This document shows, in pieces, positions 193-60,864 of a stretch of 64,000 nt of DNA. Within the stretch, counting starts at the first letter, position 1. Each line of letters begins with the position of its first letter. A program made the translations under genes and the position numbers. Under the pieces are notes generated by a model. That model saw only the letters and a program-made list of their open reading frames with translations. It did no database searches and was not told the DNA's origin. This DNA comes from Cyanidioschyzon merolae (taxonomy: Eukaryota): the NCBI GenBank assembly GCA_000091205.1, contig AP006496.2. The stretch is one strand, 5' to 3'.

Positions 193-1212
193 ATGGCTCA
201 GTTCCACCCGGAAGCACGACACGATCCGGCTCTGCTCCTGCGCCGCTACGACCTCGTCCAAGTACAAGTAGTGCCGACGCCACTCCCGCTGCAACACTTT
301 CACAACACCTGGTCTGGCCTGCAGCCACTGTGGGAGCGGTTGTTGCCTCGTCCGCAACGGTACCAGTTCGCTACAGAAAAGGGATTTTTGCTACTAAGTG
401 AACAGGCCAGACGAAGCCACAACATCTCCGAGTTGCATCTGGAGCTGACGACGAAAGATACGTGCTATGGTGCGTCACCATTCATGCGCGGTATTCTCAA
501 GTACATTGTCGGTAGTGAAACCGTCGTTCTGAACGCTTTTGCGTATCTGCTGCAGTATGGCCTCCGACACGGCCACAGTAGTGGTCAGCGGTCGCTCGGC
601 ACGGATGGGTACGTGCTCAACGTGCAGAGCGGTGATATCTATAACATCGGTCGGGTATTTATCGGGGAACTATACGCGCGCTCCGCTTACTTTACCGATG
701 TCTTTCTGTTGAAAACGGGCGTGTTACTAACGTCAGCATATGTGATGTTCACCATAGGTGCACTGATCGCGTTTGCGTTACGGGAAGTGCAGTCAAGGAT
801 CATGAAGTTAGCACTGGAGATCCAGAATGCTCGGAATCGCACGCCATATGCCGGAGCGCTGTTTAGCAGTTCGATTCATGCGCTGGTGCTGGTTCCGATT
901 ATTACAGGTATCCTTTTCTTTCTTTTTGAATTCTTCGATAATCAGCTGCTTGCGTTTTGCGTGCTCGTTGTCGCATGGATTGCGGAGGTGACGGTCATGT
1001 TGGGCTGGCGGAGCGGCCTCTCGATCTACATCCTTCCGCGGGCGTTTGCAGCGTACTTGTTAGCATTTCATATTTACTTTTTCTCGTTTCCCCTGGGTTT
1101 TAGCTGGTTAGCGCTCTTCACCTGTGCCGCGTTCATGCAGCACACTGTTTTTCTGGTTTTCTCTCGGTTCGAGTCACCGCGGCTTCGCGCTGAGGCAACA
1201 ACGCAGCGATGA
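193..1212 (+). CDS. Hypothetical multi-pass membrane protein. It may be a downstream exon of a gene starting before the window.
   Basis: ORF 103..1212 begins with TTG in the track. The first in-frame ATG is at 193. 339 codons stop-free. Several hydrophobic helix-length segments (e.g. FTDVFLLKTGVLLTSAYVMFTIGALIAFAL; LVLVPIITGILFFLFEFF; LAFCVLVVAWIAEVTVMLGW). No recognisable family motif. Confidence 0.35.
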   Translation: MAQFHPEARHDPALLLRRYDLVQVQVVPTPLPLQHFHNTWSGLQPLWERLLPRPQRYQFATEKGFLLLSEQARRSHNISELHLELTTKDTCYGASPFMRGILKYIVGSETVVLNAFAYLLQYGLRHGHSSGQRSLGTDGYVLNVQSGDIYNIGRVFIGELYARSAYFTDVFLLKTGVLLTSAYVMFTIGALIAFALREVQSRIMKLALEIQNARNRTPYAGALFSSSIHALVLVPIITGILFFLFEFFDNQLLAFCVLVVAWIAEVTVMLGWRSGLSIYILPRAFAAYLLAFHIYFFSFPLGFSWLALFTCAAFMQHTVFLVFSRFESPRLRAEATTQR

Positions 1213-2887
1213 AGAGCGCCCGGGACTAGGACGCAGCGCACTGCATGCTTGGCGATGCGCGGGTACCATGTATAACGTGCTGCGCTCCTTGAAAAGTGTT
1301 TCTTGATTCGATGGTTTTGTTTGCAGCTTCATCGGTGCGAATGGCTGCTTGGTTGGCTTGCGACGGGTAATGCACAGCGCTTGCGTGGTGTCTCAGGCAG
1401 CTTTACGCTTGGACAACTTGCAAGCATGCCAGAAACGCCAGCACTTGTACCACTTTGGTGCATGCGAGACCACCGTGTGACGGTGCGATTTTGCATTTCG
1501 CGTGAGTACGTGCTATAGAGGGCGCGGCGGATGTCTGGCGCTGGACCAGGAACGGGCATTGCTGACGACTCCATCACGCTTTCTGGCGAGCGTATGCAAC
1601 AATCCTCCTTTCCGTGGTCAGGGTCGATGCCTATATGAGCAATTCGTATTGGTTGCATGGGTAGCGCGAGCGTTTCGTGCTACATGCGCTCGTCGTCCGC
1701 TGTGCAGCAGCAGGCAGACGCGTATCCTGGACAACAAATGCGCCGGCCAACCAGACGACGGGCAACGATTCGGTACGGTAAACGAAGCAACTTCAGTCAT
1801 ACCGAGTCCGGGTTGCTTGTGCGTGGGCAAAAGATGACTCTCGTTCCATTCGAGTTCAAACGAGCGTCGTGAATCGCCACTGCCGCAACATCGCTGATGA
1901 GTGAAGTACCCGCCGCGCCAGCGTCAGTCTCCGGGGAGGCGCACCAGATCGCGCCTCTTGCTCGGAGTTGGCTTTGGTGGATCTCCCGTGGGCGACAAGT
2001 CTGGAGAAATCGCCATCGATCCCGGTGTTGTTGTTATTGCTGTTGTTCTTGTCCCCGTTGCTGTCGTCGGAGGGGGTGCTTGCCGCACAGGCGCCGTACT
2101 GGCACCAGTGTGTGGCGTACGCGCACCGGCACGACGCTGGGCGTTCTCGGCGCCGTCCCGAGACGAACTTGGAGTCTCCTTCTTTCCAGGAGCGACGCCC
2201 TTCAACCTGAGCTCATAAGCCCGGACTTTGGCCGACACGTCACCGTCGCTTTCGTTCAAGTTCTGTCCATTATGTTTCTCGTGGAGTGCTGTGTAGTGAG
2301 CGATTTTCTCCCGAACCGTCCCGGACGAAGTATCGAGAGAATCATTGACGCTTTGTTCGATTGAAGAATTCGCACTCTTACTAACCGTCTCAAAAAACTC
2401 CTTCGCGGATCGTACGCTTAAGCTTGAGTTTAAAGTCTGTTGGGACATGGATAGAAGTTTTCAGAGTCTATTGTCAGGTGTGCAGGTTGCGGGAAAAACG
2501 AATTTGCTGCGATGCGTGTCTGCGGCCGCAGGCGACGTCACGGCGGGAAAAACGGCTGTTGTCGCTCACGTGCAATGACGATCATGATGATCATGATAAT
2601 GATGATGGCTATGCCGTCCAGCAAATTCATTGGCATTGCAGCCTTCGGTTTTGAAAGCTTCTACATTCCTTTACTTGTCTGGGCGAATTCCAAGCAAGCA
2701 TCTGCCTCAAACGGTACCATAAAGAGAAAGCATTTGGATACCTCGCTCTCTCTACGTGAGCTTTGGAGATTCAGCGGGGGCTATTGCATGTTTCCAGCAC
2801 GCAGCAGCTACGTCATTCGTGTAGCGACTCGGACGCGTCGTGATCGGCGGTTCTATAATTGTACGTACTTACGCCGGTGTACAAAAA

Positions 2888-3045
2888 CACATCTAGATGC
2901 ATCGATCACTCAACGCAATCCGCATTGCACTGCCACGGTGATCGTAGATATCAACGTAAGTGCGCCTGCATACAAGCACATCTAGATGCATCGATCACTC
3001 AACGCAATCCGCATTGCACTGCCACGATGATCGTAGGTAGAAACG
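2888..3045. repeat. Direct tandem duplication, ~90-bp unit x ~1.7
   Basis: Unit 'acatctagatgcatcgatcactcaacgcaatccgcattgcactgccacgRtgatcgtag...' occurs at 2888-2977 and again from 2978, with 2 mismatches in the first 60 nt. Confidence 0.6.
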
Positions 3046-4220
3046 TTGGCTCCAAAGCGAAATCCCCTCGTGCTACGATGTTTGTTGGAATAGGATCGAA
3101 CAGTTCAACGAAACGTTCCAGAATGCGTGGGCGCTTCCAGAGAGAAGGCTGTGGATCTCAGCGCTTCAAGCGGTGCGATCCCGTCGTGCGGTTTTGAAAA
3201 TGATGCTATTTCCGGCAGCAGCGACTGGATCGATTCAGACGCTTGCTTGGCATCAAGCCGGTCTCGAACGGTCGCTGCACCTTCACCACCAGCACATCCA
3301 GCGTCACTGGGGTCATGCTGCGCAGACAGCACTGCCCTACAGAGCCTTGACGAGTATCCGCTGACAGAACGGCGCCCTATCGAGCCAACGCATACCGCAA
3401 CGGATGATTCGGGAGAGGCGCTGGCTGATGCAGTATGGCGAGAAAGTAGCGTTTTGTCCAAATGTTCTGTACCATGCGCAGATCAGACGCTTCGGATGGA
3501 CGAATGTATCTGGTTCGTCAACGGACGATCAAACTCGAACGGCGACAGCACGACGTGATTTGCCGACAATTGCTGCATTTTTGAAATGAAAGCCGCTCGT
3601 CGGAGCGACGCTGCACCGTTCCATATCGTTATGCGGGAGCGTCTCGTCGGCAGTTGGGAGCTTGTTGTCGTCGGCATATGCCGCTGAGCGCAGGCACGAC
3701 GACCAAACTGCAAGTTCACGAAGCAGGGTGCGTCATGCCCGCCAACAGCGCCGTCAGGAGCCAAAAGCGTCGAGAAGCAGACGCTGCTTTCAGCTGCTCG
3801 CCGGAGATAGCGCTCACCTAGGCTCCACGTTCATGCAGCAGAACTCTCTTACAGCATGGGATACTGTACCGTTGCGACGGTAGCAATGCCAGTGAGTACG
3901 TTCGCGTTGCGTTTTCTGTGCTGAAACCAGGTGATTTGCACTGTTCGAAGCGCCCCGTCATCCCAGCATAGGCCAACTGGATGCTGGCACTGCAGATTTC
4001 TCCTGAACCGGGTCGACGGAACTTGGATGCAGCGCGCGGTCCACAAGCTGCAGCACGTTTACAGAAGAACAAGGCTCGCGTAGACAATCAACGAACGAGT
4101 GCGACCTGCTCACCCTGGGGTATGCTCGATACCGAGCATCGCATCAGCGTTTGTCCAGGGGTACCCCATACCGCCAGACACATCCGTATCGTGAACGCGA
4201 TGACAAAGTCGCGTATGACC

Positions 4221-9340: not shown

Positions 9341-10022
9341 CTTGCGCAAACCCCGGTCTTCTTCGGGAACATCTCAACCTAGCGGCATAAAAAATGCATT
9401 CATTTTGAAGAAATAAGGGAATCCACGTGAAAGTAATGGACATGAAAGTCGGGGATACACGAGGGCCGTCATCGCCAGCCGCCTGGAAGAGAAACGGAAA
9501 AATCCTCTTCTCACCGAACATCGAGCGAAGAAGCGCAAGCGACGAAGAAGAAGGAGAAGGAGAAGAGGGGAGATCGTCGAGAAAACGTATTTGCCCAGCG
9601 GGACGAAGACGAGACTGTCGAAGCACAGCAGGCGCGAGCTCTACACAACCCTTGCAACGGTGAGTTCCACCAGCGGCAACAAATCGCAAAGAGTTCGTAA
9701 ACCGATCCTTCAACATCTCCATGAATACCAGACGATGTGCAGTGCTGTCGACCAGACCCGCAGAGCTGACGCGTTCCATCTTTGTAGTGTAGCCTCTGAA
9801 GCTCGAAGTATTCAAGGAGAAACTGAAGCCGATGCCAAGAGGCCCGTCGAAAAAAGACTGAGAGGCTTCAGAGGATATATACACGCCCCATGATAGTGCA
9901 AAGAACTGCGTTTCATTGAACACGCGCTGACGCGAGTACAGTTTGGTTGCGCTTGTACTTGCGGTAACGCTACGTCTCGAAAAGCGCGCATTAACCTCAC
10001 AGATGCTTTTCTTGCACTTCCA

Positions 10023-17416: not shown

Positions 17417-17649
17417 TGTCCATCAAATAGCGATGTGCAGGTGTCCATGCGGTGCTGGCTTGACAACTGAGGTGCTCAGCGGTTTCTGGTGCTCGTTCCA
17501 AGTCGGAACCCAAACGGGTCAAGTGCTGGCCTGCCGCCACAGCGGGGCGTCGGCCTCGGCGCTGATCGAAGATTATCGTTTATTGGACAGAATGCTTGTA
17601 TGGACTAGGGATGCTAGATTCCGCGATGGATAGTGACATCCAGGAACGC

Positions 17650-17905
17650 GCAGATCATTCTTGACGCTACATCCACGTTAGATTATTTATACTCGTTCTC
17701 GGAGATTCTGGTCATTTCCTGCGACAAAAAACTGCCGAGGCTGTCTTGAGCACCCGCAATAACGCCCATACAACCGGTGCGGATTCAGTACGGAGACGAA
17801 ACGGCTTCGAAATACTCCCGGGAGCGTCGGCTCGAGGCACGCTTCACTAGTCACAGAATCGGGATGCATCATCATTCTGGGAGCCTGAATCCTGCGCATA
17901 CGGAA
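17650..17905 (-). repeat. Dispersed diverged repeat, family A (copy 1)
   Basis: The reverse complement aligns with 31955-32185 (~70-75% identity by eye; shared blocks 'ttcaggctcccagaatgat..atcccgattctgtgactagtgaa', 'agccgtttYgtMtccgYactgMatccgcacc', 'aaatgaccag'). The same-orientation segment 17790-17900 aligns with 35030-35140. Confidence 0.5.
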
Positions 17906-19320
17906 GCACTGCCTGTGGAGGCGCGAAGCGATGTGCTAGGAGTCCACTGCGACCATAGCGACGCCCCTACGCAGCTTACCAGCTACGGGTCCCAGAATGA
18001 AATGCGTTTCGGACAAGCAGCCATGTATTGGCTCAGCACCCGTCAGTGCAGAAGCACACAAAGCGCTGGCCCAGAACACTCATCCGGCTCGCAGGACCTG
18101 CCTCTTAGACGTAAATGGTCGAATATACAGGGAATGTTTTCCCCTTTCATCGCTCACCATATCCATTCAAACACCAGGTTCTCGAGTTGCTAGTGCGCAT
18201 TTCGTTTCTTCGAGATTGCTCATGCACACGATTCTACCCGCCGCTGCGTCTTCTCTCCGTGCATTGCCGGGCACAGCAGCAGGCACACAGCACCCCGAGT
18301 GACATATGAACTGGGCATGCACTCCGAAGGGAAGCATGTTCAGTGACTAGCTTAACTTGGAGGTCGGATGCGGCATGATGGGCGTTTTCACTTATGTCGA
18401 TACCTTTCGCGTACAATAGCGCGTCGTCGGTTCCTCTGGGGGTTCCGTCGATCAAAAACACAGGCGCGATGCTGTGCGGGTAGCCGCGCGAAGCACTGCT
18501 TCCAAATAGCGTCAAGGCGAGATATCTTTTGATGATTGATCCACGAATCTGACCAGCAATCCCCGGGATATGCAACCGCTGCCTATACCCAGGGAAGCGA
18601 GCCCTCATGTGCTTCGGAGACCTCTGGGTCACGTGAATCACGCTCCAGTCTGACTGTCGAGAATGAGCGTTTCATTCACCAAACGAGCCTCCAAGCGTTG
18701 AATCCTAGTCCAGCACCGGACATAGCACCAGCAAACGCGGGCATCTCAGCACAGAACACGCGTATCGTGCCTGCAAAGAAGACTTCACTCGCAGGATTTG
18801 ATGTTTTTCTCACTGCATCCATCGATGGCAAGCGCCATGGTTAAATGCCTACCCGCTAGAATCTTTCCCGAGAATAGAGGATCGTTTACCATGACCAGGG
18901 ATTCCCCACTGCACGACGCTCACTGGTATCCGAGAGCGTGTCGCTTGTTCCGCACCTCACCGTCAGGGTCCATTGGCGAACCCGCTTCATCACTGTCCAG
19001 GATATGCTGGAGCATACCGAACGCAGTCAGCTGGGTACACGTGTGGGAAGCAGCCCGTCGAGAAGCGTGGCGCTGGGCGAGCTACATCTCCCGACGTGGC
19101 GGAACGGGTGCAAAGCATCCCAAAACAGCTTCCGTTCGTTGCTTGAAGCAAGTGCAGGCACCGGATACCGTTCAAAAGCGCTTTCATACGTATCACGTTC
19201 GGTTCGAAAGAGCGCTTCGTCCAAGTCGGGACTGGACGACGTTCGTGTGTTTCCGGAAGTGGAGACGCAAGTCGGCGACAATCCTTGTTTTACAGCTCCC
19301 GCAACAGTCGTAACAGCGCG

Positions 19321-27253: not shown

Positions 27254-29785
27254 GGTGCTCAGGTTACGGTACTGAACAGTTGCATAGTACCACACGTTCT
27301 ATACGTCAACTGATGGCGAATGCGTCTCGCGGAGCTCGCGTTTCGTCGATCGAGAAGCGCATCGATGCGATTCTCGATCAATAGAGCTGGTGCTTTCCGC
27401 TGCTGACGCTGCCGCCTTTTTTTGGATAGGCGTGGTGTGCTTTGGCATTTGTGAGCTTGGCAACCTGGTGTGCCACTGGCGCTTGCGACAGGCCCCATAC
27501 GGCTTGGTTTTCGAGCTTGTGTCGTGTCCGAACGACACACATTTGAGGTACTGGTGTGGGCAGGATGTACATTGATGACGCAGATAATCGCAGGCATCCG
27601 GTTTATGCTCGTGGGCATTGCGCAGCTGATGGTCTGGGTTCGGGCGAAGCATCGGCAGTCTCTGAAGGAATTTGGAACCCTCTATCCCTGGATGAAGAAA
27701 CGCATGCTTCCTTTCGTTTGGTGAATGCGCAGCGGGTCACGAAATTTGTGTGCGTGCTGATGGGCAAGCCCTGACTTGGAGGTACGAGGCCGGTGCGCTT
27801 GTGACTTTTCGTCACTTTTGGATGATGGTGGATTCGGTGATCGTTGGAAACCGTGTAGTGAAGTGCACCCATACTCGTGATGGTGCTCGATAGTCGAGCA
27901 ACCAAAGTGCACTCGGATATTTTTCCCAGAATACCGTGGCGGCGACTAGACATCACCCTGAATATGAACGTTTAGGGTACGCGCTTGTTTTACGTACGTA
28001 TTAGGAAACCGTAGCATGCTGTGCGGCTTCGTTGCGCACTATTCACGGCCAGCATGCCGTCACCAGAGCACCTGGTGCCGGCTGCAGCCTCCAGCTTCTG
28101 GTACCGATCGTTTGATAGCGCCAGTCAAGATGGATCGTTTCTTGACCTCAGCTCTATCACTAGCGTTTTCGACAAAACGTCATCAATATCAGAAGACGAC
28201 TGGTGATGGAGGCGCGACCGGCGGAGCTGACGCGGTCCACCTTTCTGGGACATCCTCTCAGGGTCGAATTGTACAAAGAGAAGCTGCAACCGATAGCAGG
28301 GGGCCGGTCGAAAAAGGCTAGGAGACGTCTGTGATTGGATATTAATTTACCCTAAATGGTCGTGAAACGTTTTCTTTCCATTGAACGGTAAGGGATAGAG
28401 AAAAAATCCGTCTCTCGAGCAGTTTTACTACTGGAAGGGAAAAATCAGCAGGTGGCTAACGAACATCCGCGTGCTTAAGGAATGGCGGGTGGCGTAGGGG
28501 GTGCAGATAAGTTTACGGTTTGGTGCTTGCACAACTACATACAAGTTAGGCTCTTGAAACTAATCTTATAGAGTAGATAAGAATACAGTATGTGCTTTTG
28601 TCGGGTGCCTCGATCGTGCCAGGCGAGATGCGTCGGCCGAACGTCGTGGCAGATATGGACGCTACCTGTGTGCTATGCCTCTGTCAAGATCACCGGGTCC
28701 GAGACAGTAGCAGGCACCATAACTTGGGCAATGACGATAGCATGGAAATGACTTGAACGGTCATCAGTACCAGCCCATGACGCCGGAAAGAAGCAAAATT
28801 CATGTCAGTTCCTTATTCCAGCGTCCGTGCAGCATGCATAACAAGCATAGAGAATAAACTTACATCCGTGTTCGGGAACACTACCGTATTTAGTTTGGTT
28901 ACGATCAATACAACTAACGAAACTCTTCAAGGCTAGTGTGATGCATACCTCATCCACACAAGCGTAAGCCGCAGAGAACGCTACGCTTTTGATAGAAGCG
29001 TCGAGAGGTATCGTGCCAGGCCCCAACAGCTCCATGTATGTCAGGGCGGTACTGCGATGGGCAGTAGCGTCGGCACCAGCGACATAGCCTATAGCAAGAG
29101 ACTACTCTACGTGAGTTTTCGATTTAGGACACCTGATTTTTGCTGCTGCGCGATGCGAACACGCAAGTGCCAAGGCGGGGTGTCGGACACGTGTCCTTCA
29201 TCGATCGGTGAGGCGTCTCGCGCGGTGCACGCATCGCGCTCGGTGAGCGCATCTGGGAGATCAGGCAGACATGAGACACGACATGTATGTCGCCGTTGAA
29301 GGGAAATGCGATCGCGATCTTTAGCGTGTTGCTCTCAAGTTGTATTTGCGTTAAAGTCATAGCAGAGTATACTTTTCAGGTCAATTATGTTTCAACCCTC
29401 AGTTTAGTTTATTCAAGTGATTTTTCGCGGTTTATATCAGAGGCGTTGATGGAGCGTTCTTTTTCAAAAAAACAAAAAAGGAAAGCTATGAAAAAGCAAG
29501 TCGGCGATCCTGGAGGCCCAGGGTCGCCGGCTGTCAGAAAAAAAAAACAAAAACAGTGCCGATTCCAGAAGAAAAGCAAGAGAAAAAGAAGCAAAAGGGG
29601 AGGCCTTACGTCGAAGGCGGCAAAAAAGACAACTGTACGACGAGATGGTGGTTAAAGGCTGTCTTCTTAAACAAATCAAGGATCCCCACAGGGAAACGTT
29701 GCGATACGCTATCGAAAAACGTGTCGACTCGTACTCGAAGAGTATTGTCAAGGCGTCGTCAGGACTGATGCATTTGTCGAGGTAG

Positions 29786-31713
29786 ATGTATCGCGAAGTG
29801 GCGCACATGGAAACGGTCGAGATTCCGGACGAGTTTTTCGACAAGACCTCTATTCGTCAGCTGATGCTTGGTACAGGGGAAGCGCGGAGGGAAACTCAGA
29901 TAGTGCATGCCCTCCACGAAAGCTTCGCGGAATTCCGCTTCGAAGGTAATCGATACAAGGGTGACTCGACTATTTACATATACGGGGCGGTGAAGTACCT
30001 CACGAACCTGAGGAACCATATGACGATGGACCTCGAACATTTTATGATACGCGCCGTGTTCGCTCTCGACCCGCGCATCTCTCGCAAAGGTGCACAGGCG
30101 ATGATCAATGGCATCACGAAAGATCGCAAGCGTGAAGATGAGGTCGAATTTGTAGACAAGAAGGCGTCAAAAGAGCGCATGAATGAAGCTTCTGTAATCC
30201 GTGCGGCTATCCAAGAGCATCGTGCGGTACTGGGGTTTGTTAATCCAACAGAAAAGATATCAGAGTTGAAAAAAGACAAGGAAAGATACTATCGCCTCGT
30301 CCTGCGATATTTCGTGTTTCTGGACCGAGAGCTCGAACGCAAAGCGGAGATGAAGCTGAGTGAGGAGAGAATTAAAAAAGAGTGGGAGAGACGGGCGGCT
30401 TCGCTCATGGGAAGCGCTTCTACGCGGTTCCAATGTGCAACATCAAGTCACATTTTGTGACGATCGACTCCAGCATCCTCTATGGCATCATGAGACAGAT
30501 CAGTGGGGAGTTCGATGTTAGCAACGGGAAGTTCATCGGTGAAAACCGGGAGATGCACTAGAAGAATATCTTCGAGTTCAAACTTCTCAAAGCGGGCAAG
30601 CAAAAGTTGTTCACTGGGATGATCGAAACCGATGGAGTAGCCTTGTGTGTACACGATCCGCGGTTGACGAAAGATCGTTCAGTGCCGCCCTCGGCTTCGC
30701 CCGTGGCGAAGGATGCAGAAAACAAAGCGGCGGATCCTGCGACGCAGCAGGTAGAGGATAACGACCTTGTCGTTGGTACGGCGAAGCATGAAGATGAGAA
30801 GGAGGCGGGTCTTGAGACGCAGAAAGTGCAGGATAACGACTTTGTCGTTGGCGCGGCGAAGCATAAAGATGAGAAGGAGGCGGGTCTTGAAACGCAGAAA
30901 GTGCAGGATAACGACTTTGTCGTTGGCGCGGACCTCGGGAACACGAATATCGTAACCATCGCAGCATCCACGCCTGGGGAAGATGATACTGACGGTGACT
31001 TACGTCAGAGAGACACGCGACTTTTGAGATTCCCGACAACGAGATGCTATCGAGAATCCGGTATAACGAATGCAAGGAAGAGAATCGAGATATGGAATGC
31101 AGGAGTGAAAGAGCACCTCGAAGCTTTGAGCGAGGTAACGAGCCGCGGAGCGGACTTTCGAGCTTTTCGGGAATTCCCGCAAGTTCGTGTTGCTCATTGG
31201 GATGCGCTGTAGAGGAGTATACAAAGCCTCGGTGGGCTCGTTTGCGAATGAACTTGCACTGTGGGAAGCAGCGTGCATTCGCGAATTTTTTCAATGAGTT
31301 GCGTGCCCTGAAGGAGGATGAAAGTCAGAGGCCCGTAGTAGCGTCTTGGGCAGGGCGATGGAAGACCCAAACAGGGACTACTCCAGCTCCAACGACGAGG
31401 GTATGCAAGGAGTGTGCACGGCGTTTCGTTACAATACCGATAGATGAGTTTCGAGCATCGTATACACACCACGAGCTGGGTTGTACACTTCAGAGGGTCG
31501 AGATGGAAACGTGTCAGCGGCGCCCTGAGGATACAAAAAGTACGGACCGCTGACGGAAGAGCAAATGGAAAGGAGGGCGACAGTTCGTGGACTCCTTGCA
31601 CTAGCGCTTTCTGCAAACAACGGCAAGAAACGTATCGAATCGTGAACGGAGACTTTAACGCCGCTATCAATATAAGGAAATGTACGGTGATGGAAAGAAG
31701 ACCTCCAGAGTAG
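29786..31713 (+). CDS. Fanzor-like RNA-guided nuclease (eukaryotic TnpB homologue), interrupted gene. Four ORF segments lie in different frames and are most likely joined by introns.
   Basis: Segments 29786-30460, 30607-31212, 31044-31553 and 31444-31713. RuvC-I '[21 protein letters not shown]' (D codon at 30931). Zn-finger CxxC '[10 protein letters not shown]' (31404). '[11 protein letters not shown]' (31594). RuvC-III '[15 protein letters not shown]' (D codon at 31651). Order I, ZnF, III with ~240 aa between the RuvC-I and RuvC-III aspartates. Total span ~640 codons, typical for Fanzor1. Confidence 0.6.
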
Positions 31714-31889
31714 ACGAGTGAGAACTTTGGGGACAACCTCTCAGCGTGGGACTATATGAGAAAAAGCTGGAAGCAGTAGTGAGTGGCCGCCCCCAAAAAA
31801 CCGGGAGGCACCTGCACGACAGTTGGAGGCTTCTTGTCTAGGGCGGGCTTCGCGCCACTACTGTACAAGGTCGGCATCGTTTTTCTTTT
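31600..31889 (+). ncRNA. Candidate omega-RNA scaffold (3' end of Fanzor ORF plus conserved non-coding tail up to the element right end)
   Basis: ~175 nt after the stop codon (31714-31889) is conserved between both copies and ends at the exact point where the flanks diverge. This position is analogous to TnpB/Fanzor omega-RNA. No structure or expression evidence is available. Confidence 0.25.
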
Positions 31890-31954
31890 GAAAGACGTTT
31901 GTTTCCAGGGGTGGCTCCTAGTATATTGCTTCGCGCTGCCGCAGGCACTAGTCC

Positions 31955-32185
31955 TGTATGCGCAATTTCAGGCTCCCAGAATGATAAGGAATCCCGATTC
32001 TGTGACTAGTGAACCGACCGTCGATCCAGCATCCTCTGTAGTATTGCAAAGCCGTTTTGTATCCGCACTGCATCCGCACCTGCGGTGTCAGCGCTATTAC
32101 GCATGCTTGAAGCAATTACTCTGCGAATGATAGAACGTACAAAATGACCAGTACATCCGAAAGTAAGTTTAAGTTATGGAACTTG
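31955..32185 (+). repeat. Dispersed diverged repeat, family A (copy 2, inverted relative to copy 1)
   Basis: See 17650-17905. It lies ~65 bp beyond the right end of Fanzor element copy 1. Confidence 0.5.
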
Positions 32186-32723
32186 AACGTAAGTTTCACT
32201 TTGATGAACGCATTTGGGACTACCAATATCCATCCCCGCAATAACGGATCCAGGGTCGATGTACAGGTTTAGCCATCGGAAAAAATATATTGCGTAAGCA
32301 GCCTTCATATGTCAGCGCTCTTGTATGCTTCGGATTCCGAACCGGGCTTGCCCGACGTAAGCGCCCGAGGCACGCAGGTGTAAGAAGCCAGCGAGCGAGG
32401 AAGTCTGCTGGCTAAAACAGCAGTCGGGCAAACCAGCGAGCCAGTGTACTCCACGAGGGCGAGACACGAGCTCGCCTGCAGCCGCACGTGCTGGGTACTT
32501 CAGCGACTCCAAACGAGCCACCGCTCAAACTCTTTTACGTCAAGCAGTTGTGGACGTCCCGTGGTGATGCAGACGAGTTTCTGCCTGAGGCAAAAACGTT
32601 TTGGAAATAGGTCAACTTGGCGGTGAACGAGGACCTGGTAGTACTGGCAAGTGGCCCTGTCGACGACACTGTGGAGGCATGTTCACCGGTGGCGAAGCAT
32701 TTGCGCCAGCGCCTCATCGTCCC

Positions 32724-33731: not shown

Positions 33732-34974
33732 ATGCACTGGATGCGTGTTTTGTAAGGAGATTTTGCATAGAACTCGAGGGTATCGGAGAATGCAGACGCT
33801 TACACCAGCATATGCTCCGAGGCTGCCTCGAACAACGTTCGTAACGACGCGATTCGATCCAATTTAGTACAGTCGAGAGAGCAAGCCTGTCCTGCTCGTG
33901 TCGAGCGAGATCGCCGCGTGGAATAGTACTCAGCGCTGCTCTGGATCCTGCCAGTGGATTGCCCACAACTGCCAGAATACGTATTCGCAAAGCGCAGGGA
34001 TCGAGCGACAGATGACTTTGCGGACACCACTTCTCTTGGTGAGTCGGCGCCAGCGATCGGTAAAACTGGTTCCGTTCATGGACAAGGCGGCACGGATACG
34101 CTCGATTTGCGGTCTGGCAAGGAAACGAAACACGCTGTAGTGTCTACGAAGCCAAGTACGTTCAAGGCAGCAGCTTTGTTCGGCCATAGGTTAGAATCGT
34201 TCCATGAGACATGCAGCATGTAACAGAGACTATGAAGCGTGCAAGTGTATTTCTGGACTGCGTGCACACGCCAGAATCGGCATTGGCCGTCAAAAAAGCA
34301 GGCTGAAAGGTATTCTCTGTGTTTCCAAGGACGCATTCGGACTCGTTCAGTAAATCAACGGGCTTCATCGAGAACGCGGACGCAGGACTGGAGGTCGACG
34401 TGCGTACGGATGCGGCAGCGCTATCCGCAGCATCACTTGAACCAGATCTGGAAGGGGCTTGTTGTGAAGTATACCTCTGTTGCTTCACTTGTTGGTATTC
34501 GAGCCATTCGGATGCTCCGTATTTGCTCCGCATCATCAACACCGTGCTGAACGGCTCCCGTGGCGTGTATGTGTCCATGAAAGCGACGCGAGCTCAGAGT
34601 CTCGAGTGCATGTCGAGATCGCACTGCAAATTCCCGTTAAAAGGATGCGACGCTCACCATCAAATGCAGCTTCCAACGATAAATCTCTGTACACGGGTTT
34701 GTGGTGGCAGGTTGTCCCATTGCCGTCCAGATGGGTGCACACCTTCTGAGCAATATGCAGCAGCGTTTGCATATTTTCAATCGGCAAAACGTTTGCATAG
34801 GCCAGCGTTCTCCGATTGTGCGCTCTTTCTTTTCTTACTTTTTTTCAATGTGCGGTGAAGTATCCATCAAACATCCTACCTCCAAGTTACATCACCTATA
34901 CTTCTTCTCGGATATTCTGGTGGTTTTATAAGTTCTATCACTCACCTAATGCGCGCCCTGCTAGTCCGCAAAGG

Positions 34975-35140
34975 CTCCTGAACCGCTGGAACGGGTTCAC
35001 CACAGTGACAGAACGGCGTTACCGTACCACAGCGGGCGTCGGCTCGAGGCGTGCTTCACCCGACGTAGAATCGGGTCTCATCGTCAGTTTGTGCTCAGTC
35101 AGTCTGCGGATGCAGGCTTGCCTTCGCTGCACGAAACGCT
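34975..35140 (+). repeat. Dispersed diverged repeat, family A (copy 3, partial)
   Basis: 'gcgtcggctcgaggcRYgcttcac...agaatcggg...catcRtca' aligns with 17815-17900 (~65-70% by eye). Confidence 0.4.
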
Positions 35141-36057
35141 GGAGGAACTTGGCTGTTAGGATGAATTCTGGGAGTCGTCTGTCTCCTTCGTGATCATGCA
35201 TGGAATGCGTTCTTGGTTGGCAATGCGGGTTTGTGCTTGACACCCACCACAGTGGGTAGGCGCAGAGAGCACTGGGCCCGTGTGCGCATCCGATTCGCTG
35301 GACCTTCCGCTTGGAAGGTAGCATGTGAGTTTGTTCGCCACTGATGAGCGCTGAGGCTCGGTTAATGGACCATCAGTTGCCAGTGCTACACTCAGAGTGA
35401 GTGTCCGGCCTTCGTCTATCACGGTGAAGCCCAGCTGCTGCTGTCCTTCAAGGAGCTCGGTTCGCTCCTGTTTCCAGCGCGGGCACTGTAAGCCTAAATA
35501 TGCCAGCGTCTCCGGAATCTCGTCTCGATAGCAGGGACAGTGTTATTCCCAGTGCGATTCCAGTGTTCCTATACGGCTTAGAGACGGTGCTGCTCGCCAG
35601 AAGCCACCGACGCGTATTGTGGCGAGCCACTAGGTACCTCGAGCTAGTCCCGGGAACTCCAGCGCCTCCCACCAGTACGTGCATGAACAGGCTAGGCTGT
35701 AGTTCCGGTACAGAGTCAAGCCGGCGTTGAGGGCGCGACTGGTTCCGTGGCTACGTTCCCATATTGTTGTTTGGACCGTTCGCTTAAGGCGGCGGGAGCC
35801 TTCTATATTTCTGGGGAACGATTGGGGAGCGTGTTTTCGCCTAGGGGGCGCTTCAGCCAAATCTGCGTTGATTTCAACCAAGTGATCTTGCGGTGCATTG
35901 GGGTTTGCATGGATATGCGACTGAACCAGGTGTGCATGGTGGGCCCTTTGGCCCATATACGTGCCCGGTATCCTGCTGCTATCGCTTCTGTCGAGGATTT
36001 CTGGAGTTCAAGTCCGAGTGCCAGGAGGTATCGCGGTCGATACGCGCACCTCCATAT

Positions 36058-38420
36058 CTGGCGGGCATGAAACACCACGCGCATGTCGCCGTTAAAGGGA
36101 AACGTGATCGCGATCTTTAGCGTGTTGCTCTCAAGTACGAGTTGTATTTGCGTTAAAGTCATAGCAGAGTATACTTTACAGTTCAATTATGTTTCAACCT
36201 TCTTAAACATATCAAGGAACCCCACAGGGAAACGTTGCGAGACGCTATCGAAAAACGTGTCGACTCGTACTCGAAGAGTATTGTCAAGGCGTCGTCAGGA
36301 CTGATGCATTTGGCGAGGTAGATGTATCGCGAAGTGGCGCACATGGAAACGGTCGAGATTCCGGACGAGTTTTTCGACAAGACCTTTATTCGTCAGCTGA
36401 TGCTTGGCACAGGGGAAGCGCGGAGGGAAACTCAGATAGTGCATGCCCTCCACGAAAACTTCGCGGAATTCCGCTTCGAAGGTAATCGATACAAGGGTGA
36501 CTCGACTATTTACATATACGGGGCGGTGAAGTACCTCACGAACCTGAGGAACCATTTGACGATGGACCTCGAACATTTTATGATACGCGCCGTGTTCGCT
36601 CTCGACCCGCGCATCTCTCGCAAAGGTGCATAGGCGATGATCAATGGCATCACGAAAGATCGCAAGCGTGAAGATGAGGTCGAATTTGTCGACAAGAAGG
36701 CGTCAAAAGAGTGCGTGAATGAAGCTTCTGTAATCCGTGCGGCTATCCAAGAGCATCGTGCGGTACTGGGGTTTGTTAATCCAACAGAAAAGATATCAGA
36801 GTTGAAAAAAGACAAGGAAAGATACTATCGCCTCGTCCTGCGGTATTTCGTGTTTCTGGACCGAGAGCTCGAACGCAAAGCGGAGACGAAGCTGAGTGAG
36901 GAGAGAAATAAAGAGTGGGAGAGACGGGCGGCTTCGCTCATGGGAAGCGCTTCTACGTGGTTCCAATGTGCAACATCAAGTCACATTTTGTGACGATCGA
37001 CTCCAGCATCCTCTATGGCATCATGAGACAGATCAGTGGGGAGTTCGATGTTAGCAACGGGAAGTTCATCGGTGAAAATCGGGAGATGCACTAGAAGAAT
37101 ACCTTCGAGTTCAAACTTCTCAAAGCGGGCAAGCAAAAGTTGTTCACTGGGATGATCGAAACCGATGGAGTAGCCTTGTGTGTACACGATCCGCGGTTGA
37201 AGAAAGATCGTTCAGTGCCGTCCTCGGCTACGCCCGTGACGAAGGATGCAGAAAACAAAGCGGCGGATCCTGCGACGCAGCAGGTAGAGGATAACGACCT
37301 TGTCGTTGGTACGGCGAAGCATGAAGATGAGAAGGAGGCGGGTCTTGAGACGCAGAAAGTGCAGGATAACGACTTTGTCGTTGGCGCGGCGAAGCATAAA
37401 GATGAGAAGGAGGCGGGTCTTGAAACGCAGAAAGTGCAGGATAACGACTTTGTCGTTGGCGCGGACCCCGGGAACACGAATATCGTAACCATCGCAGCAT
37501 CCACGCCTGGGGAAGATGATACTGACGGTGACTTACGTCAGAGAGACATGCGACTTTTGAGATTCCCGACAACGAGATGCTATCGAGAATCCGGTATAAC
37601 GAATGCAAGGAAGAGAATCGAGATATGGAATGCAGGAGTGAAAGAGCACTTCGAAGCTTTGAGCGAGGTAACGAGCCGCGGAACGGACTTTCGAGCTTTT
37701 CGGGAATTCCTGCAAGTTCGTGTTGCTCATTGGGATGCGCTGTGGAGGAGTATACAAAGCCTCGGTGGGCTCGTTTGCGAATGAACTTGCACTGTGGGAA
37801 GCAGCGTGCATTCGCGAATTTTTTCAATGAGTTGCGTGCCCTGAAGGAGGATGAAAGTCAGAGGCCCGTAGTAGCGTCTTGGGCAGGGCGATGGAAGACC
37901 CAAACAGGGACTACTCCAGCTCCAACGACGAGGGTATGCAAGGAGTGTGCACGGCGTTTCGTTACAATACCGATAGATGAGTTTCGAGCATCGTATACAC
38001 ACCACGAGCTGGGTTGTACACTTCAGAGGGTCGAGATGGAAACGTGTCAGCGGCGCCCTGAGGATACAAAAAGTACGGACCGCTGACGGAAGAGCAAATG
38101 GAAAGGAGGGCGACAGTTCGTGGACTCCTTGCACTAGCGCTTTCTGCAAACAACGGCAAGAAACGTATCGAATCGTGAACGGAGACTTTAACGCCGCTAT
38201 CAATATAAGGAAATGTGCGGTGATGGAAAGAAGACCTCCAGAGTAGACAAGTGAGAACTTTGGGGACAACCTCTCAGCGTGGGACTATATGAGAAAAAGC
38301 TGGAAGCAGTAGTGAGTGGCCGCCCCCAAAAAACCGGGAGGCACCTGCACGACAGTTGGAGGCTTCTTGTCTAGGGCGGGCTTCGCGCCACTATTGTACA
38401 AGGTCGGCATCGTTTTTGTT
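36058..38420 (+). mobile_element. Fanzor/TnpB-like element, copy 2 (degenerating)
   Basis: Collinear with copy 1 but lacking the 258-bp segment 29406-29663. Flanks are unrelated to those of copy 1. Confidence 0.6.
36322..38246 (+). pseudogene. Fanzor-like nuclease pseudogene: premature stop, RuvC-I substitution and 3-bp deletion relative to copy 1
   Basis: TAG at 36631-36633 where copy 1 has CAG (Q). RuvC-I reads 'VVGADPGNTNIV' (L>P, ctc>ccc). 'ERNKEWERR' versus '[10 protein letters not shown]' in copy 1. The frame structure is otherwise identical to copy 1. RuvC-III '[12 protein letters not shown]' is retained. Confidence 0.6.
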
Positions 38421-38502
38421 TTGAAAGGCGGTGGTGGTGTGGTGTGTGTACGTCCTTTCTGAACCGCCAATTTTTCGATAAAAGCCCGAACTGCGTGAGA
38501 TT

Positions 38503-44464: not shown

Positions 44465-46696
44465 TTGCAGAACCGCTTGTTTGCTCGCGTAAAACATGTA
44501 CACTGACCAAGATCAAAATGCAGGAACGCCAATATCTTCTACGAATTGCCTGGGAGAATCGGTCCCGGTTTCTGTATACAGCGATTCAGGCTTGCTGGAC
44601 GCCTGCTTCGTGGAACCCCAGTGTCTCGCGATCGGCGAGAGTCCAACGCGCTCTCACCCGACCACTGATGTATTTGCATCGCAAGTCTTCGGCAATTCAG
44701 TGCATTACCTAGACTGTGTTCTAAACAATGCCCTCCAAGTCCACGCACCCCAGAGCCGCTAAAAGCCCCGGAGGCATGACATCATCGTCGAAAAATGACC
44801 AAGGTGTTCAAGTCTGTGTCCAGAGAGTGCTTGCGCGCATGGTCGCTGGCGGAATCACACGGAAACGAGCGTCGCTCCATCGATCGCATGGCCATCCGAC
44901 GTTTCCTCATCTTAACGGACATCTTCTGATGCATATGAATTTGTTTGCAATCCCATCTTCCCGATCTATTCCAGGTGCACCTGTGCTCTTTATAAGCGTA
45001 CCTCGTCCGAAACGCATCGGTGTTCGTGGTCCAGAATCGATTCCTGCACCCGTCGCACGTTGTCGTCGAAGGATGCGGCGTGCCGCTTTCGTGCGTGGCA
45101 CTACGTCCAGCGTTATTGGATACCACGAAACGGCGCCTCGTATCGGCGATTTCCATCTTCAATTCATTGCAATGTATCATGGATGCACGCATGTTGCCTC
45201 CTTAGAACCGAGACCTGTGGAGATGTCGGCTCGGTTTCGTGGGCACCCGCCAAAGATCGCCCGCATGAGCCGCTTGGACGCTCATCTACGCTCTCTGAAT
45301 AAAGCCTCCAAAACGTCCCTTCTGCTTGGTAGGGTGCTCAGAGCATGGTGATGTGTTCGGATACCGTCATGCCAACTGTTCGTATTCCTTTTAGCGTTCC
45401 TATGTCCGACGCTCAATCATACAGATCCCTCGACAAACGGAGCAGCTCCAACTGCTTTCCGTTCCTGCGTTTCGCCCCGTGCGCTCGATTTTTCTGTACA
45501 GCAACGACCATGACGATCTTGGACCCGGAATCCGGGCTCACCACGAAGCGTTCCTCTTCAGCTGCCTTGCACGGGTGAAAACGAGTCTCGTTAGATAACT
45601 CAGGCCTTGATTTCAGGAGTTTTACACAGATCATGCAGATGGATATTCTGTCGGTCTCTCAAGTCTTTGCGTACTTCTTTCCATTTTCTGCCCGTCTACG
45701 GGGAACCTTGATCGAGCTCCACCAATGCCCATTGCGAACTTTGTCGAATGCTTCATCGTTGATCACAGGTACCGACTACATCGCTTGTTCTTGCGCGGTA
45801 TGCTGCTATAGATGTCGCCTCTAGACTTCATACCCGCTTACTTCCGGTTAGTTCAGACGCACTGGATGCGCAGCAACACAGAATCACGTCTTTTCTATGT
45901 ATTTACCCACCATTCCTCGACTACAATTCATTCACCCTCTACGTCGTGAGCACGCTCACGGGCAGAAGCGAACCTTTCTGCCCCGGCCCGAGCTCGAGTA
46001 GAGAAGCGGCGTACCTGTCCAATGGTGCTGAAGGTAGAGAACAACTCGAGTAGAAACATGCGAGTTTCAAAACGGTGTTCGATAACAGACAAGACACCTG
46101 CGACTGCACTTACCTGGATCGACAGAACTTCTACACTAGCCAGGCATCGCCGATTCCGCGATTATCGTCGGTATCGCGGAGCGTGTCTCTCGTTCTTCGT
46201 ACGACATTCAAGCTCCGTAACCCATACTTATCCATGGAGATTCTGGCCATTCCGTACGTTTCATCGTGCTTCAAACCTGCCGTGAACGTCCGTCATAGCA
46301 CTTGTGGCGCCGGTGCGCACGCTACATGGAACAGAGCAGTGTTGTTTTGGACTGTACTGATGTAGGGCGAATAGGCTGGCCCAGGGAGCAGCTCAACGCC
46401 AATCTCAGCTGCATAATCCCTCGGCCGCTTTTGAGTGATGCAACCCGAAGTCGTCCATGACCAGGACAGAATCGTGTCGGCAGGAGAATCAGCGAGCAGT
46501 ACTGCGATGAAGGATGCAGTGTTTTACCATACTGCCGCTCTGGCGACGAACAGACGACCGCATGATTGCATCGTCGCTCGGGAAGCTGTTGTGGACGCGC
46601 GCGCATGGCCGCCTCTGTACGAAGAGCGGTTTGCCCCTACTGGAGTTCCCCTGCAAACGCCTGTCATGTCAAGTCTCGTCGAGTGAGCCGAACACG

Positions 46697-57012: not shown

Positions 57013-58700
57013 AAGTTACATCTTCTATGCGTACGCATGCCCGAGGGGCATACGTGTTCCGTGGAGCAGTGCCCGAGCATGGCGGCGGGTGCTCCATATA
57101 CATGTCCGTAAAACTTGAAATGTTCTACGACCACGACGGGTATGCGTACATTTTTACGCGCTTACGCCTCTTAGCTTTTCTGACCGGCATTCTGCTATCG
57201 GTTTCAGCTTCTCCTTGCACAGTTCGAGCCTGACAGGCTGCCAAGTGAAGCAGGAATTGTGTCAGCTCCTCGGGTCTCGTCTTCAGCACCGCACATCGTA
57301 TGATATTGATGACGGCGTTGAAGTCTCGCTTCACCAACTCCTTGCGTTTATTGCCTCTGGTTGAACTCACCAATGCAAGGATTGCTAGAACTCGTGCTCT
57401 CTGTGCCGTTTGCTGCAGTGTCAGCGCTGCGCTGCCTTCTCTCCATCACGATCTTCTGCAGTGTACATCCCAGCACATCCCTTACATATTTTGATTCTTC
57501 AAATGTACGCACTTCTTTATGCCCGTAGGTAAGGAATTCCCCTGAAAGAGAAGGACTGGTGGCAGAAACAGGTCATGCGCCCTGGTGTGTCACCGTGTGC
57601 TGAACGCATCAGCGATTCGCCCAGTGCAGCGATGTTTACGTTTCACGATGGAAAACATACACTGAATGGGCATGAACCACGGAGTGTACGGCGGAATGAA
57701 AATCAGCACTATCCCCGCCAGAATTTGCAAAAACCCCGAACTTAACGGTAATCTAGAAATGCCACGTGGTCCTTTAGAAGAGCGTCGTCATACGGCATCG
57801 AAAATTCTCCAATGATTCGACAAAGAACGTGCTGTTGTATCAGCCTTGCCTGTGAGCGAAACTGAGGCCGCCAAGTGGATCCGCTCCACCTGGACCAGAC
57901 GATGATTTCCGAGTTCTCCTCACGTTCGATTGTACATACAACGGAACACCCTGCTCCGCGAATACCCGTATACGCTCCAACCGTCTCATCCGATGAAAGT
58001 CTCATCAACTGAAAAAACAAACCGACTTGCCTGTGCTTCATACCGATGGTTGAGTTCTGTGAATTCTGTTGTTGCGGATTCGGCGGAAGCTGTGCTTTCG
58101 TGAACCTGGACTTTATTGCGCCCGGATCCCAGTGTTTTGAGGGTCAAACGAACAATCTGTTGAGAAACAGAGACGCTTGTGGGAACTATTATCGTCGCTC
58201 TTTGCCTTCCGCAAAGAGATCGATCGGTTGTTTTTCTACCGTAGACCGCAAAAAGTCTTTAAAAATATCGGTTTTTGGCACTAAACTCCTTTCTTCTTTC
58301 ACTGTTCCTAAACTATCCGCGTACCGTGGTACGACTGACCTGAAGGAGGAGCGCAGTCCTTCTTCCACTGTCCAGAAAAGAATATATATACTACAAGCGA
58401 TTCGTCTACGATGTATACGATACTTTGCATCGTGATTTCGATAGCCTCCTACGTGCCACACTCTGGGTGAAACAGACTTGCGTTGAAAGATTATGAAAAC
58501 CCATGCAGCCTAGCAGGCAGGTCGGAGTACGTAAATGAATCATATTGTTCCGTTCACAATGCAACGAGTCGCGCAGTCGGCTGCGGGCGGACGAATCGCG
58601 TACCGCGAGCCACGTTGTATGAAGCGGTGTCTGTCTTCGCACTGAAGTCGACGTCGATACTGCTTCTCCGGACGCTCGCTTCAACGCGATCCGGGAGAAG

Positions 58701-59255: not shown

Positions 59256-60864
59256 AACTGTGACTTCGGCGACTGCACCGCGACTTGCCCGGTGCAGAGT
59301 ACCAATCGGATTGCATTCGGTCTTGGTGAACAGGGGATTGCTGGAGTTACGGCCCGAGGAATTTATGATATACGCTTTGAAGTTGCTAAATAACAGATGG
59401 CGGCGGGAGCATTCGGAGCGGAAACGCATGCACCACATCTGGGGCAAATGATATTTAGGCGATAGAACATGGTATCTTTACAGTCTGCCGCAGCACAGCG
59501 ACCTTGTGTGTCGTACCCTGAGTTCTTTTACACACGCATCACCGTCCCTGAGTAGATTGTGTACGTTCGTTTCCGCAAGCTTGCGAACCAAATGCGGATT
59601 CAAGGCCATGCGAGTAGTTTGTCCCGAATACGTATGGGCGAGGTTTCGGAAACATGATCTTGGTTCCGATGTGGACGCCTATCCCGAAAGGAACGGGATG
59701 TAACCAGCCTTATAAACAGAGCAGTTAATTCTAGAACAGCTGTACCAGCACGCTCTTTCTGTTGGTACATGTCATTCTCGCGGGTATTAAAGAAACAGAT
59801 AGTATCCTCTAGACTAGAGAATCGTCACGGAAATTCGAAAAAAATGTCACTATTTGGGAATGAAATGGCCTCACTTCAATAAATCAGTAATTCTACGCCC
59901 ATCAGCCGGATGAGTCATGTCCCTCGTTGGCAATATGCTGAGCGCCGTGCACCAGAAATAGAACATATCAGACGCTGTCTGCACAACTGTCTCCTGATCG
60001 TTTCATTCTAATCCATGCGATCTCAAAGCAACGCTACCCAAGCATTCATAAGATGCAGAGATTCCGTGCCGCACATGTGAACGGAGATGAAGAGACACCG
60101 ATGGACAAAGAAAAAACAAGCTTCCATGGCAGACCGTGGCGCGTTGAACCGGACACAATCGAATTCGCACTGAAACGCGACCGCATACGATACGAGCTAC
60201 AGCTATTCGTCCCAGTCGATGAGCGTGTACGCGGAAGAAACCCTAGACATGTATAGGAGCATTCAAAGAGTGGTAAAACGCTGCTCGCAGGGAAGGGGTG
60301 ACAGAACATGACGACTTGAGAGTTACGATACCTCGCAGGTCTCACGAAAGTGCAGCAGTAGAAGCTCGCTCTCCCCTGGTCGAGACCTATGTAAACTGTA
60401 GCGGGGAGCAAGTACTGAGAAACTGAAACCGATCGGAATCGGCTGGTCAAAAAAGTCTCGGAGGCGCCTGCGCGTGCGTAGATGTATCCGCCATCGATGG
60501 TTGTGAAACGTTCTCGTTCTGCTGACCATTGAGAATATCGACTGGTACCGGTGAATCACGCCTTGGTCCCTCGCCTTGATCGACTTGACAAAACTGTTCT
60601 GTCTCCGTGCTGCATGCGCGCCGGCACGATCAGCGCACTATCGCGGAGGCTCGCGGCCCACGATGCAACGTAAGAAACAACCAGTCTCGCTGGGGGATCG
60701 TACGGGTACTGGAACTTGGAAGCAGGTGAAACCACGAATGCTTCCTCTGATCGCTGGCATCAAGCGCACAATGGCAGAGATCCCTGGTCTATATGTGTAG
60801 ACGAGCTGTCGAGCACGAGGCATCTGGAGAATGTGTCGAAAAAACACCCGTGATCATCATCATC

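Follow-up and report, generated by a model that had tools for sequence, protein, structure and literature searches.

Two dead CMe-1A Fanzor1 cores in Cyanidioschyzon merolae, one of them a chimera probably produced by ectopic gene conversion

A 64-kb stretch of the Cyanidioschyzon merolae 10D genome (hereafter the window) contains two near-identical repeats, copy 1 and copy 2, both of which are dead, transposase-less cores of the CMe-1A family of Fanzor1 elements. Copy 1 is a chimera, in which an old 5′ module and terminus of one family sub-type (group A) are joined in register to young sequence of the copy-2 type, and the gene carried by both repeats was already dead when the two diverged. 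Their similarity is probably due to ectopic gene conversion, in which sequence of the copy-2 lineage was written in place over an older element at the copy 1 site; here we infer the mechanism, the direction and the in-place nature of the event. The family itself is already known, having been published in 2013 for the C. merolae genome itself.

Self-comparison of the window aligns the core of copy 1 (29663–31894) with that of copy 2 (36199–38427) at 98.4% identity over 2,232 bp in direct orientation, and a weaker match of 87% lies to the left (29260–29397 against 36056–36199). Both copies are collinear on the + strand, ~6.8 kb apart, in agreement with an earlier reading of the bare DNA (the sequence-only reading), which had described them as ~98% identical, alike in orientation and set in unrelated flanks. 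Pairwise alignment of the copies shows the similarity stopping at the element ends, with unrelated flanks beyond, and thus bears out the claim that no larger block was duplicated. Two copies 6.8 kb apart in the same orientation would suit a local duplication, segmental or tandem, of some chromosomal block containing the element, but this alignment refutes that account, since the intervening sequence is likewise unrelated and a HAD hydrolase and a repeat, X, lie on one side, with a trehalase and the group-A module on the other. We consider such a duplication highly improbable.

CMe-1A is one Fanzor1 family described in C. merolae, with ~150 copies, each ~80% identical to a 3,169-bp Repbase consensus and some still intact (Bao & Jurka 2013, Mobile DNA 4:12; PMC3627910). 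The same paper reports no terminal inverted repeats (TIRs) and no determinable target-site duplications (TSDs), gives the classification as 'unknown', and identifies the 5′ 635 bp of the consensus as another repeat, TE-N2_CMe. Using the consensus from supplementary file 2 of PMC3627910, we find that positions 648–3169 align to 29235–31897, and positions 645–819 and 1080–3169 to copy 2, at 84–86% identity throughout. TE-N2_CMe is absent upstream of both copies, and both are therefore cores and not full consensus-type elements. Neither the stitched copy-1 protein nor intact relatives gave a usable match in Pfam scans, the stitched protein showing no transposase domain, and a profile search against PDB sequences returned a chance hit only. 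Therefore, family membership is taken from the published consensus together with a fold search. The latter used P0001, an intact 752-aa relative of the Fanzor gene from metagenome locus L001, and so bears on the family and not on the broken copies of the window. Its structure model is of low confidence (mean predicted local distance difference test score, pLDDT, of 53, but 60–83 in the C-terminal RuvC part), and the top seven PDB matches are solved Fanzor1 chains (SpuFz, PpFz and GtFz; E 1e-6 to 3e-4), followed by Cas12 variants. Consensus and fold thus agree with the sequence-only reading that these are Fanzor elements. At L001 5600–6100, an ATG matching the consensus start (MKKQIDDPGG...) is out of frame with the called 752-aa open reading frame (ORF), which begins at GTG, so this 'intact' copy may have an N-terminal frameshift or another start.

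The window pair resembles published CMe-1A in its host genome, its 734-aa Fanzor1 ORF, its 84–86% DNA identity over 645–3169, its lack of TIRs, determinable TSDs and transposase, and a divergence from the consensus similar to the reported family value. It differs in what lies upstream of the core, namely a different 5′ module (copy 1) or repeat X (copy 2) in place of TE-N2_CMe, and the 98.4% identity within the pair is atypical against family copies ~80% identical to the consensus. Compared with the characterised Fanzor1 nucleases SpuFz1, PpFz and GtFz (PDB 8GKH, 9CEZ, 9CF1, 9CER), the P0001 model shares the TnpB/Cas12-like fold with a split RuvC, and the CMe-1A family has the G-x-D-P-G RuvC-I and (R)DFNAAINI RuvC-III motifs and an ORF that stops only just short of the right end, where conserved hairpins form. 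Unlike the characterised proteins, with which sequence identity is only 12–15% and to which no Pfam or PDB sequence match leads, neither window copy is able to make the protein.

The evidence for a chimera comes from the left end. To place the family junctions we used 36–50 independent loci; related loci were sought in hot-spring metagenomes holding close relatives of C. merolae, where 354 matched and 80 were fetched. Family copies in unrelated contexts turn similar at 'ATCGCG(C/G)TCG...', which corresponds to 29233 in copy 1, 36030 in copy 2 and ~645 in the consensus, 37 bp to the left of the 'catgaRacac' (29270 / 36066) that had been proposed as the element boundary. The onset of solid identity at 29286, taken earlier as part of that boundary, is instead a recombination breakpoint 53 bp inside the element. 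Over these first 53 bp copy 1 is 87% identical to group-A/D loci (L054/L060/L043), and copy 2 matches L001 at 92% and the consensus at 87%. Each is closer here to sequences from other genomes than to its partner, which makes the two terminus types old. Copy 1 carries the group-A state at 15 of the 16 informative sites up to 29280 and the copy-2 state from 29290 on. Between 29286 and 29397 the two copies agree at 105 of 112 positions (94%; Fisher test against the core, p = 0.003), and there copy 1 is 87% identical to the copy-2/L001 type vs 74% to group A. The group-A terminus of copy 1 in turn runs on into at least 0.7–1.8 kb of group-A upstream sequence. A fresh transposition would have carried its own terminus. 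Whatever the scenario, an A-type and an E-type element must have undergone at least one recent homologous exchange.

The tract to the right of the breakpoint was already a pseudogene before it came to be present twice. With the consensus ORF as reference (734 codons, beginning with an ATG at consensus position 906), the gene of copy 1 is broken by seven frameshifts and four in-frame stops; five of the former and three of the latter are common to copy 2. The shared lesions are five 1-bp deletions and three TAG codons, the third of them at consensus codon 692 (TTG in the family). Comparison with the uninterrupted P0001 independently shows four of these frame switches and two of the stops, the first ones in each case. 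Introns were rejected as a cause of the frame changes, since homology to intact proteins runs across each switch without intervening sequence. RuvC motifs are still recognisable (GADLG in copy 1, GADPG in copy 2, and RuvC-III), but they lie in different frames, split by the shared frameshifts and stops. Because these lesions predate the divergence of the copies, copy 1 is not the candidate active source that it had been proposed to be; likewise, the description of copy 2 as a young pseudogene holds as to pseudogene but not as to age. Neither the shared lesions nor the 266-bp deletion of copy 2 described below had been mentioned earlier.

An assembly or sequencing artefact, whether mis-joined repeats or frameshifts and stops entered as errors, is extremely improbable. 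Nothing specific points to one, beyond the fact that repeats can in principle be mis-assembled. The window has intron-free eukaryotic genes (Sec1, a BK channel, the trehalase and an ABC transporter among them), its long housekeeping ORFs are intact, and two ORFs match the C. merolae 10D proteins BAM81214.1 and BAM81215.1 exactly; as the long neighbouring ORFs are intact and match GenBank exactly, the lesions are not sequencing errors. Moreover, the copies differ at 35 core positions, yet share eight identical lesions at non-homopolymer sites.

The differences private to each copy, polarised with 83 related loci as outgroup, are those of two sequences decaying separately. Derived substitutions number 22 in copy 1 and 17 in copy 2, the pattern expected of neutral decay. 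Mutation resembling repeat-induced point mutation was considered and rejected, as the 26 transitions and 12 transversions form a plain mix divided evenly between the copies. The private lesion of copy 2 is a 266-bp deletion that removed its start codon; the lost segment comprises 91 bp of 5′ untranslated region (5′UTR), the ATG at 29488 and ~58 Lys-rich N-terminal codons, and is homologous to consensus ~820–1080 and to P0001 residues 7–36. Copy 1 has its own frame shifts (+2 at codon 17 and −1 at codon 37), a 6-bp deletion and a private TAG.

Three further differences had been reported as changes in copy 2, and each exists as a difference with its direction misread. For the supposed CAG>TAG change, the family codon is TGG, and at the first position of this codon (203) 67 loci carry T and 5 carry C. 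By parsimony, TAG was the ancestral state of both copies and the CAG of copy 1 arose later, since two steps suffice for this (TGG>TAG, then TAG>CAG in copy 1) where the alternative needs three. For the supposed Leu>Pro change in RuvC-I (37467–37469 against 30934–30936), position 30935 is C in 83/83 loci, P485 is invariant in protein alignments A2 and A4, and the consensus reads GADPGNTNI; because GADPG is the family motif, the change was Pro>Leu and occurred in copy 1. For the supposed 3-bp deletion, copy 2 has the family length and copy 1 an insertion. Just upstream of this RuvC-I motif, both copies carry a 75-bp tandem array two units above the consensus number. The encoded 25-aa repeat precedes the RuvC-I strand, varies from ~1 to 5 units across the family (protein alignment A2, columns ~400–530) and duplicates 'DNDFVVGA', the lead-in of the catalytic motif.

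The order of events that we favor would begin with an element settling long ago, and independently, at each of the sites, the two being of different sub-types, one with the group-A 5′ module and left terminus at the copy 1 site, the other with repeat X and a consensus-type terminus at the copy 2 site. Homologous recombination between these direct repeats 6.8 kb apart would then have overwritten the copy-1 resident with copy-2-lineage sequence from ~29286 to the 3′ end. The donor would have been dead by that time, its gene bearing three to four stops along with the five 1-bp deletions. Neutral decay would have followed, leaving ~20 private substitutions per copy, with copy 1 later acquiring the 3-bp insertion, the 6-bp deletion, the Pro>Leu change beside the RuvC-I Asp and a TGG>TAG stop, and copy 2 later losing 266 bp including the start codon. 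C. merolae has very efficient homologous recombination. Like other cases of ectopic gene conversion between dispersed repeats, the pair combines old flanks and termini with a young interior and a sharp, in-register switch of type, and the repeats lie close together in direct orientation on one chromosome.

Recent transposition offers a different account, in which mobilisation in trans would have brought an inactive, non-autonomous CMe-1A copy, either copy 2 itself or some unseen master, into the other site. The repeat is a discrete unit that ends at the family right terminus between unrelated flanks, and the family was clearly mobile formerly, given 354 related metagenome loci and ~150 genome copies. 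The left 53 bp, in contrast, differ by 30% and are of two old types, that of copy 1 being continuous with the group-A module across an in-register junction; the rest of the family is old (~80–86% identity), no other young copy appears among the fetched loci, and no transposase lies nearby. We regard transposition as unlikely here, and the recent mobility suggested by the sequence-only reading does not follow from the pair, in which each copy has an old terminus of its own type that runs on into its own upstream repeat.

Several observations weigh against gene conversion. The tract of the window pair differs from other cases in reaching one natural repeat end, the right terminus, as transposition would also give, and that it takes in 98% of the element would be a coincidence of sorts. 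The sorting into terminus and 5′UTR types relies mostly on related genomes from hot-spring metagenomes and not on the other ~150 C. merolae copies. At least one other locus, L040, joins a type-I terminus to an L001-type 5′UTR, so such segments reassort among family members, and the chimera could have arisen at another place. Finally, the body of the pair is equidistant (~80–85%) from all sub-groups, and the direction of transfer is consequently read from only 112 bp.

At the right end a terminal hairpin is conserved, and similarity among copies ceases just past it. By the published consensus the element ends at 31897 / 38430, and the family alignment suggests 31899 / 38432; the right boundary proposed earlier, '...TTTTGAAAG', is essentially right. 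GTT follows ...GGCG in ~24 of 43 loci; judged from this alignment, the right end is likely at 31899 / 38432, where the consensus may be 2–3 nt short. A terminal hairpin of 7–11 bp forms in ~31 of the 43 loci on per-sequence folding (median dG, the folding free energy, −10.1; median z −2.4), in at least three compensated variants: CGTTCGA-CTT-TCGAACG, CGTTTTTC-TTTT-GAAAGACG and ACGTTCTA-CTT-TAGAACG. RNAalifold on the 43 right ends yields only a weak global structure (−1.5 kcal/mol), since the alignment does not bring the hairpin variants into register; the sequences were therefore folded singly. No Rfam family matches the right-end RNA. The core is thus laid out as a 5′UTR, a 734-codon TnpB-like RuvC nuclease gene and a ~60-bp 3′ tail closed by the terminal hairpin, and, if it resembles the Fanzor/TnpB systems characterised so far, the tail would encode a guide-RNA scaffold (putative omega RNA).

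No inverted repeat joins the two termini of copy 1 or copy 2, in keeping with the earlier view that the carrier is of a type without TIRs. As in IS200/IS605- and Helitron-type (HUH, single-strand) carriers, TIRs are absent, the 3′ terminus has a conserved hairpin, a GC-rich palindrome apparently lies near the 5′ terminus, and the nuclease gene is a passenger and not the transposase. By eye, the palindrome at the left end reads GCGCTC-GGT-GAGCGC in type-I copies, and type-II copies have another. Unlike in those carriers, no TnpA or Rep/Hel gene and no transposase domain was found in or near the window copies, where the ORFs of the A module, of repeat X and of the stretch between the copies have no Pfam match; nor was a conserved target site, a TSD or a common flanking motif identified.

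Across the family loci the left end of the core adjoins at least five recurrent upstream contexts, A to E: a long shared module (A, as in copy 1), TE-N2_CMe (B, as in the published consensus), inverted repeat X (C), another repeat (D) and forward repeat X (E, as in copy 2 and L001). TE-N2_CMe lies upstream in only ~1/3 of the distinct left junctions examined. By its junctions, the published CMe-1A consensus appears to be composite, TE-N2_CMe joined to a ~2.5-kb Fanzor core that starts at ~645. In two metagenome contigs, L079 1–5154 (Ga0080006_1150460) and L081 1–5283 (Ga0078972_1002060), two Fanzor copies stand head to head with the A module between them. Repeat X is ~1.25 kb long (window 34774–36024; L026 429–1644; L027 1493–2745; L040 1–1047; L050 4054–4612; L001 4404–5703) and has no Pfam match; its orientation varies, so either X end can touch the same Fanzor terminus. 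This arrangement suggests a target preference of one element for the ends of the other. L001, whose upstream 1.3 kb are 86% identical to those of copy 2, was considered as an ortholog of the copy-2 locus and rejected, as its flanking genes are not syntenic with the window; nor is the upstream 1.3 kb evidence of orthology, the segment being repeat X, which stands beside Fanzor cores in both orientations.

Other Fanzor- and TE-N2_CMe-derived segments are scattered through the window (Table 1). Three short, old Fanzor 3′ relics all stop aligning at consensus ~3081–3088, ~85 bp before the right end; this common end could reflect the longest survival of the most conserved stretch, or a distinct truncated derivative. 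A more diverged Fanzor-like pseudogene may be a far older copy or belong to a second family. With its TE-N2_CMe pieces and six Fanzor-derived segments, the 64-kb window is unusually repeat-rich for so compact a genome.

Table 1. Positions of the two Fanzor1 cores, their lesions and other repeats in the window.
Feature	Position	Strand	Remarks
Copy 1, CMe-1A Fanzor1 core (5′UTR, broken 734-codon ORF, 3′ tail); pseudogene	29233–31899	+	84–86% against consensus 648–3169
Copy 2, CMe-1A Fanzor1 core with 266-bp internal deletion; pseudogene	36030–38432	+	85–86% against consensus 645–819 and 1080–3169
Left-terminal 53 bp of copy 1, group-A type	29233–29285	+	37/53 (70%) against copy 2 36030–36081; Fisher test against core p = 2e-15
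Copy 1 tract near-identical to copy 2 (36082–38432), probable conversion tract	29286–31899	+	
266 bp present in copy 1, deleted in copy 2	29397–29662; junction 36198/36199	+	1-bp microhomology at junction
Five shared 1-bp deletions (frameshifts), consensus codons 306, 524, 633, 667, 698	copy 1: 30409, 31211, 31536, 31639, 31730; copy 2: 36942, 37744, 38069, 38172, 38263	+	
Shared in-frame TAG, consensus codon 99	29783–29785; copy 2 36319–36321	+	family GAG
Shared in-frame TAG, consensus codon 357	30559–30561; copy 2 37092–37094	+	family TGG
TAG in copy 2, CAG in copy 1 (30095–30097)	36631–36633	+	TGG (Trp) in family; consensus codon 203 = TGG; P0001 W
3-bp insertion private to copy 1, codon 293 (ERIKKEW)	30371–30373; copy 2 site 36907	+	copy 2 (ERNKEW) of family length; P0001 reads SEETNEEW
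Tandem array of 2.7 75-bp units (25 aa each), just upstream of RuvC-I	30729–30931	+	identical array in copy 2 at 37262–37464
RuvC-I: GAC-CTC (Asp-Leu) in copy 1, GAC-CCC (Asp-Pro) in copy 2 (37464–37469)	30931–30936	+	Pro invariant in family
TAG private to copy 1	31210–31212	+	TGG in copy 2 (37743–37745) and family (Trp of HWDALW); 31211 is G in 75 loci
Right-end terminal hairpin (CGTTTTTC-TTTT-GAAAGACG)	31878–31897	+	copy 2 version 38411–38430 weakened by C>G at 38418
A module, repeat block contiguous with copy 1	27397–29232	+	common to other loci from 28545, 28604, ~28780, 28995 or 29030; to L081/L079 from 27397
Repeat X adjoining copy 2 left end	34774–36029	+	forward in L001/L005, inverted in L026/L027/L040/L050
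Truncated TE-N2_CMe relic directly downstream of copy 1	31911–32278	−	consensus 1–366, 77% identity
TE-N2_CMe copies/fragments	17586–18147 (+), 31911–32278 (−), 34875–35081 (+), 60586–60728 (−)		68–77% identity
Three short old Fanzor 3′ relics (RuvC-III region)	9631–9869 (+), 28176–28331 (+, within A module), 57156–57478 (−)		67–70% identity
Diverged Fanzor-like pseudogene with stops	44785–45736	−	28–38% aa identity to P0001 and CMe-1, codons ~513–681

A more speculative reading, to which we give little credence, is that the chimeric pair records homology-directed copying between paralogous elements triggered by a Fanzor itself. An intact CMe-1 Fanzor encoded elsewhere would cut at or near the right-end junction, and the neighbouring copy would serve as the repair template. 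If this were true, the family would spread and homogenise by recombination without a transposase, which would explain both the long-kept intact ORFs in a transposase-less family and its reassorting termini and bodies.

The value of the present analysis is mainly corrective. Neither an active Fanzor nor continuing transposition in C. merolae should be read from these two loci, and copy 1 is no candidate for a functional nuclease. To the published record it adds, modestly, a core that starts at ~645 with alternative upstream repeats, and with it an apparently composite consensus. It also adds at least one copy pair with the signature of ectopic gene conversion, which, in a genome where homologous recombination is very efficient, bears on how a 150-copy, transposase-less family evolves.

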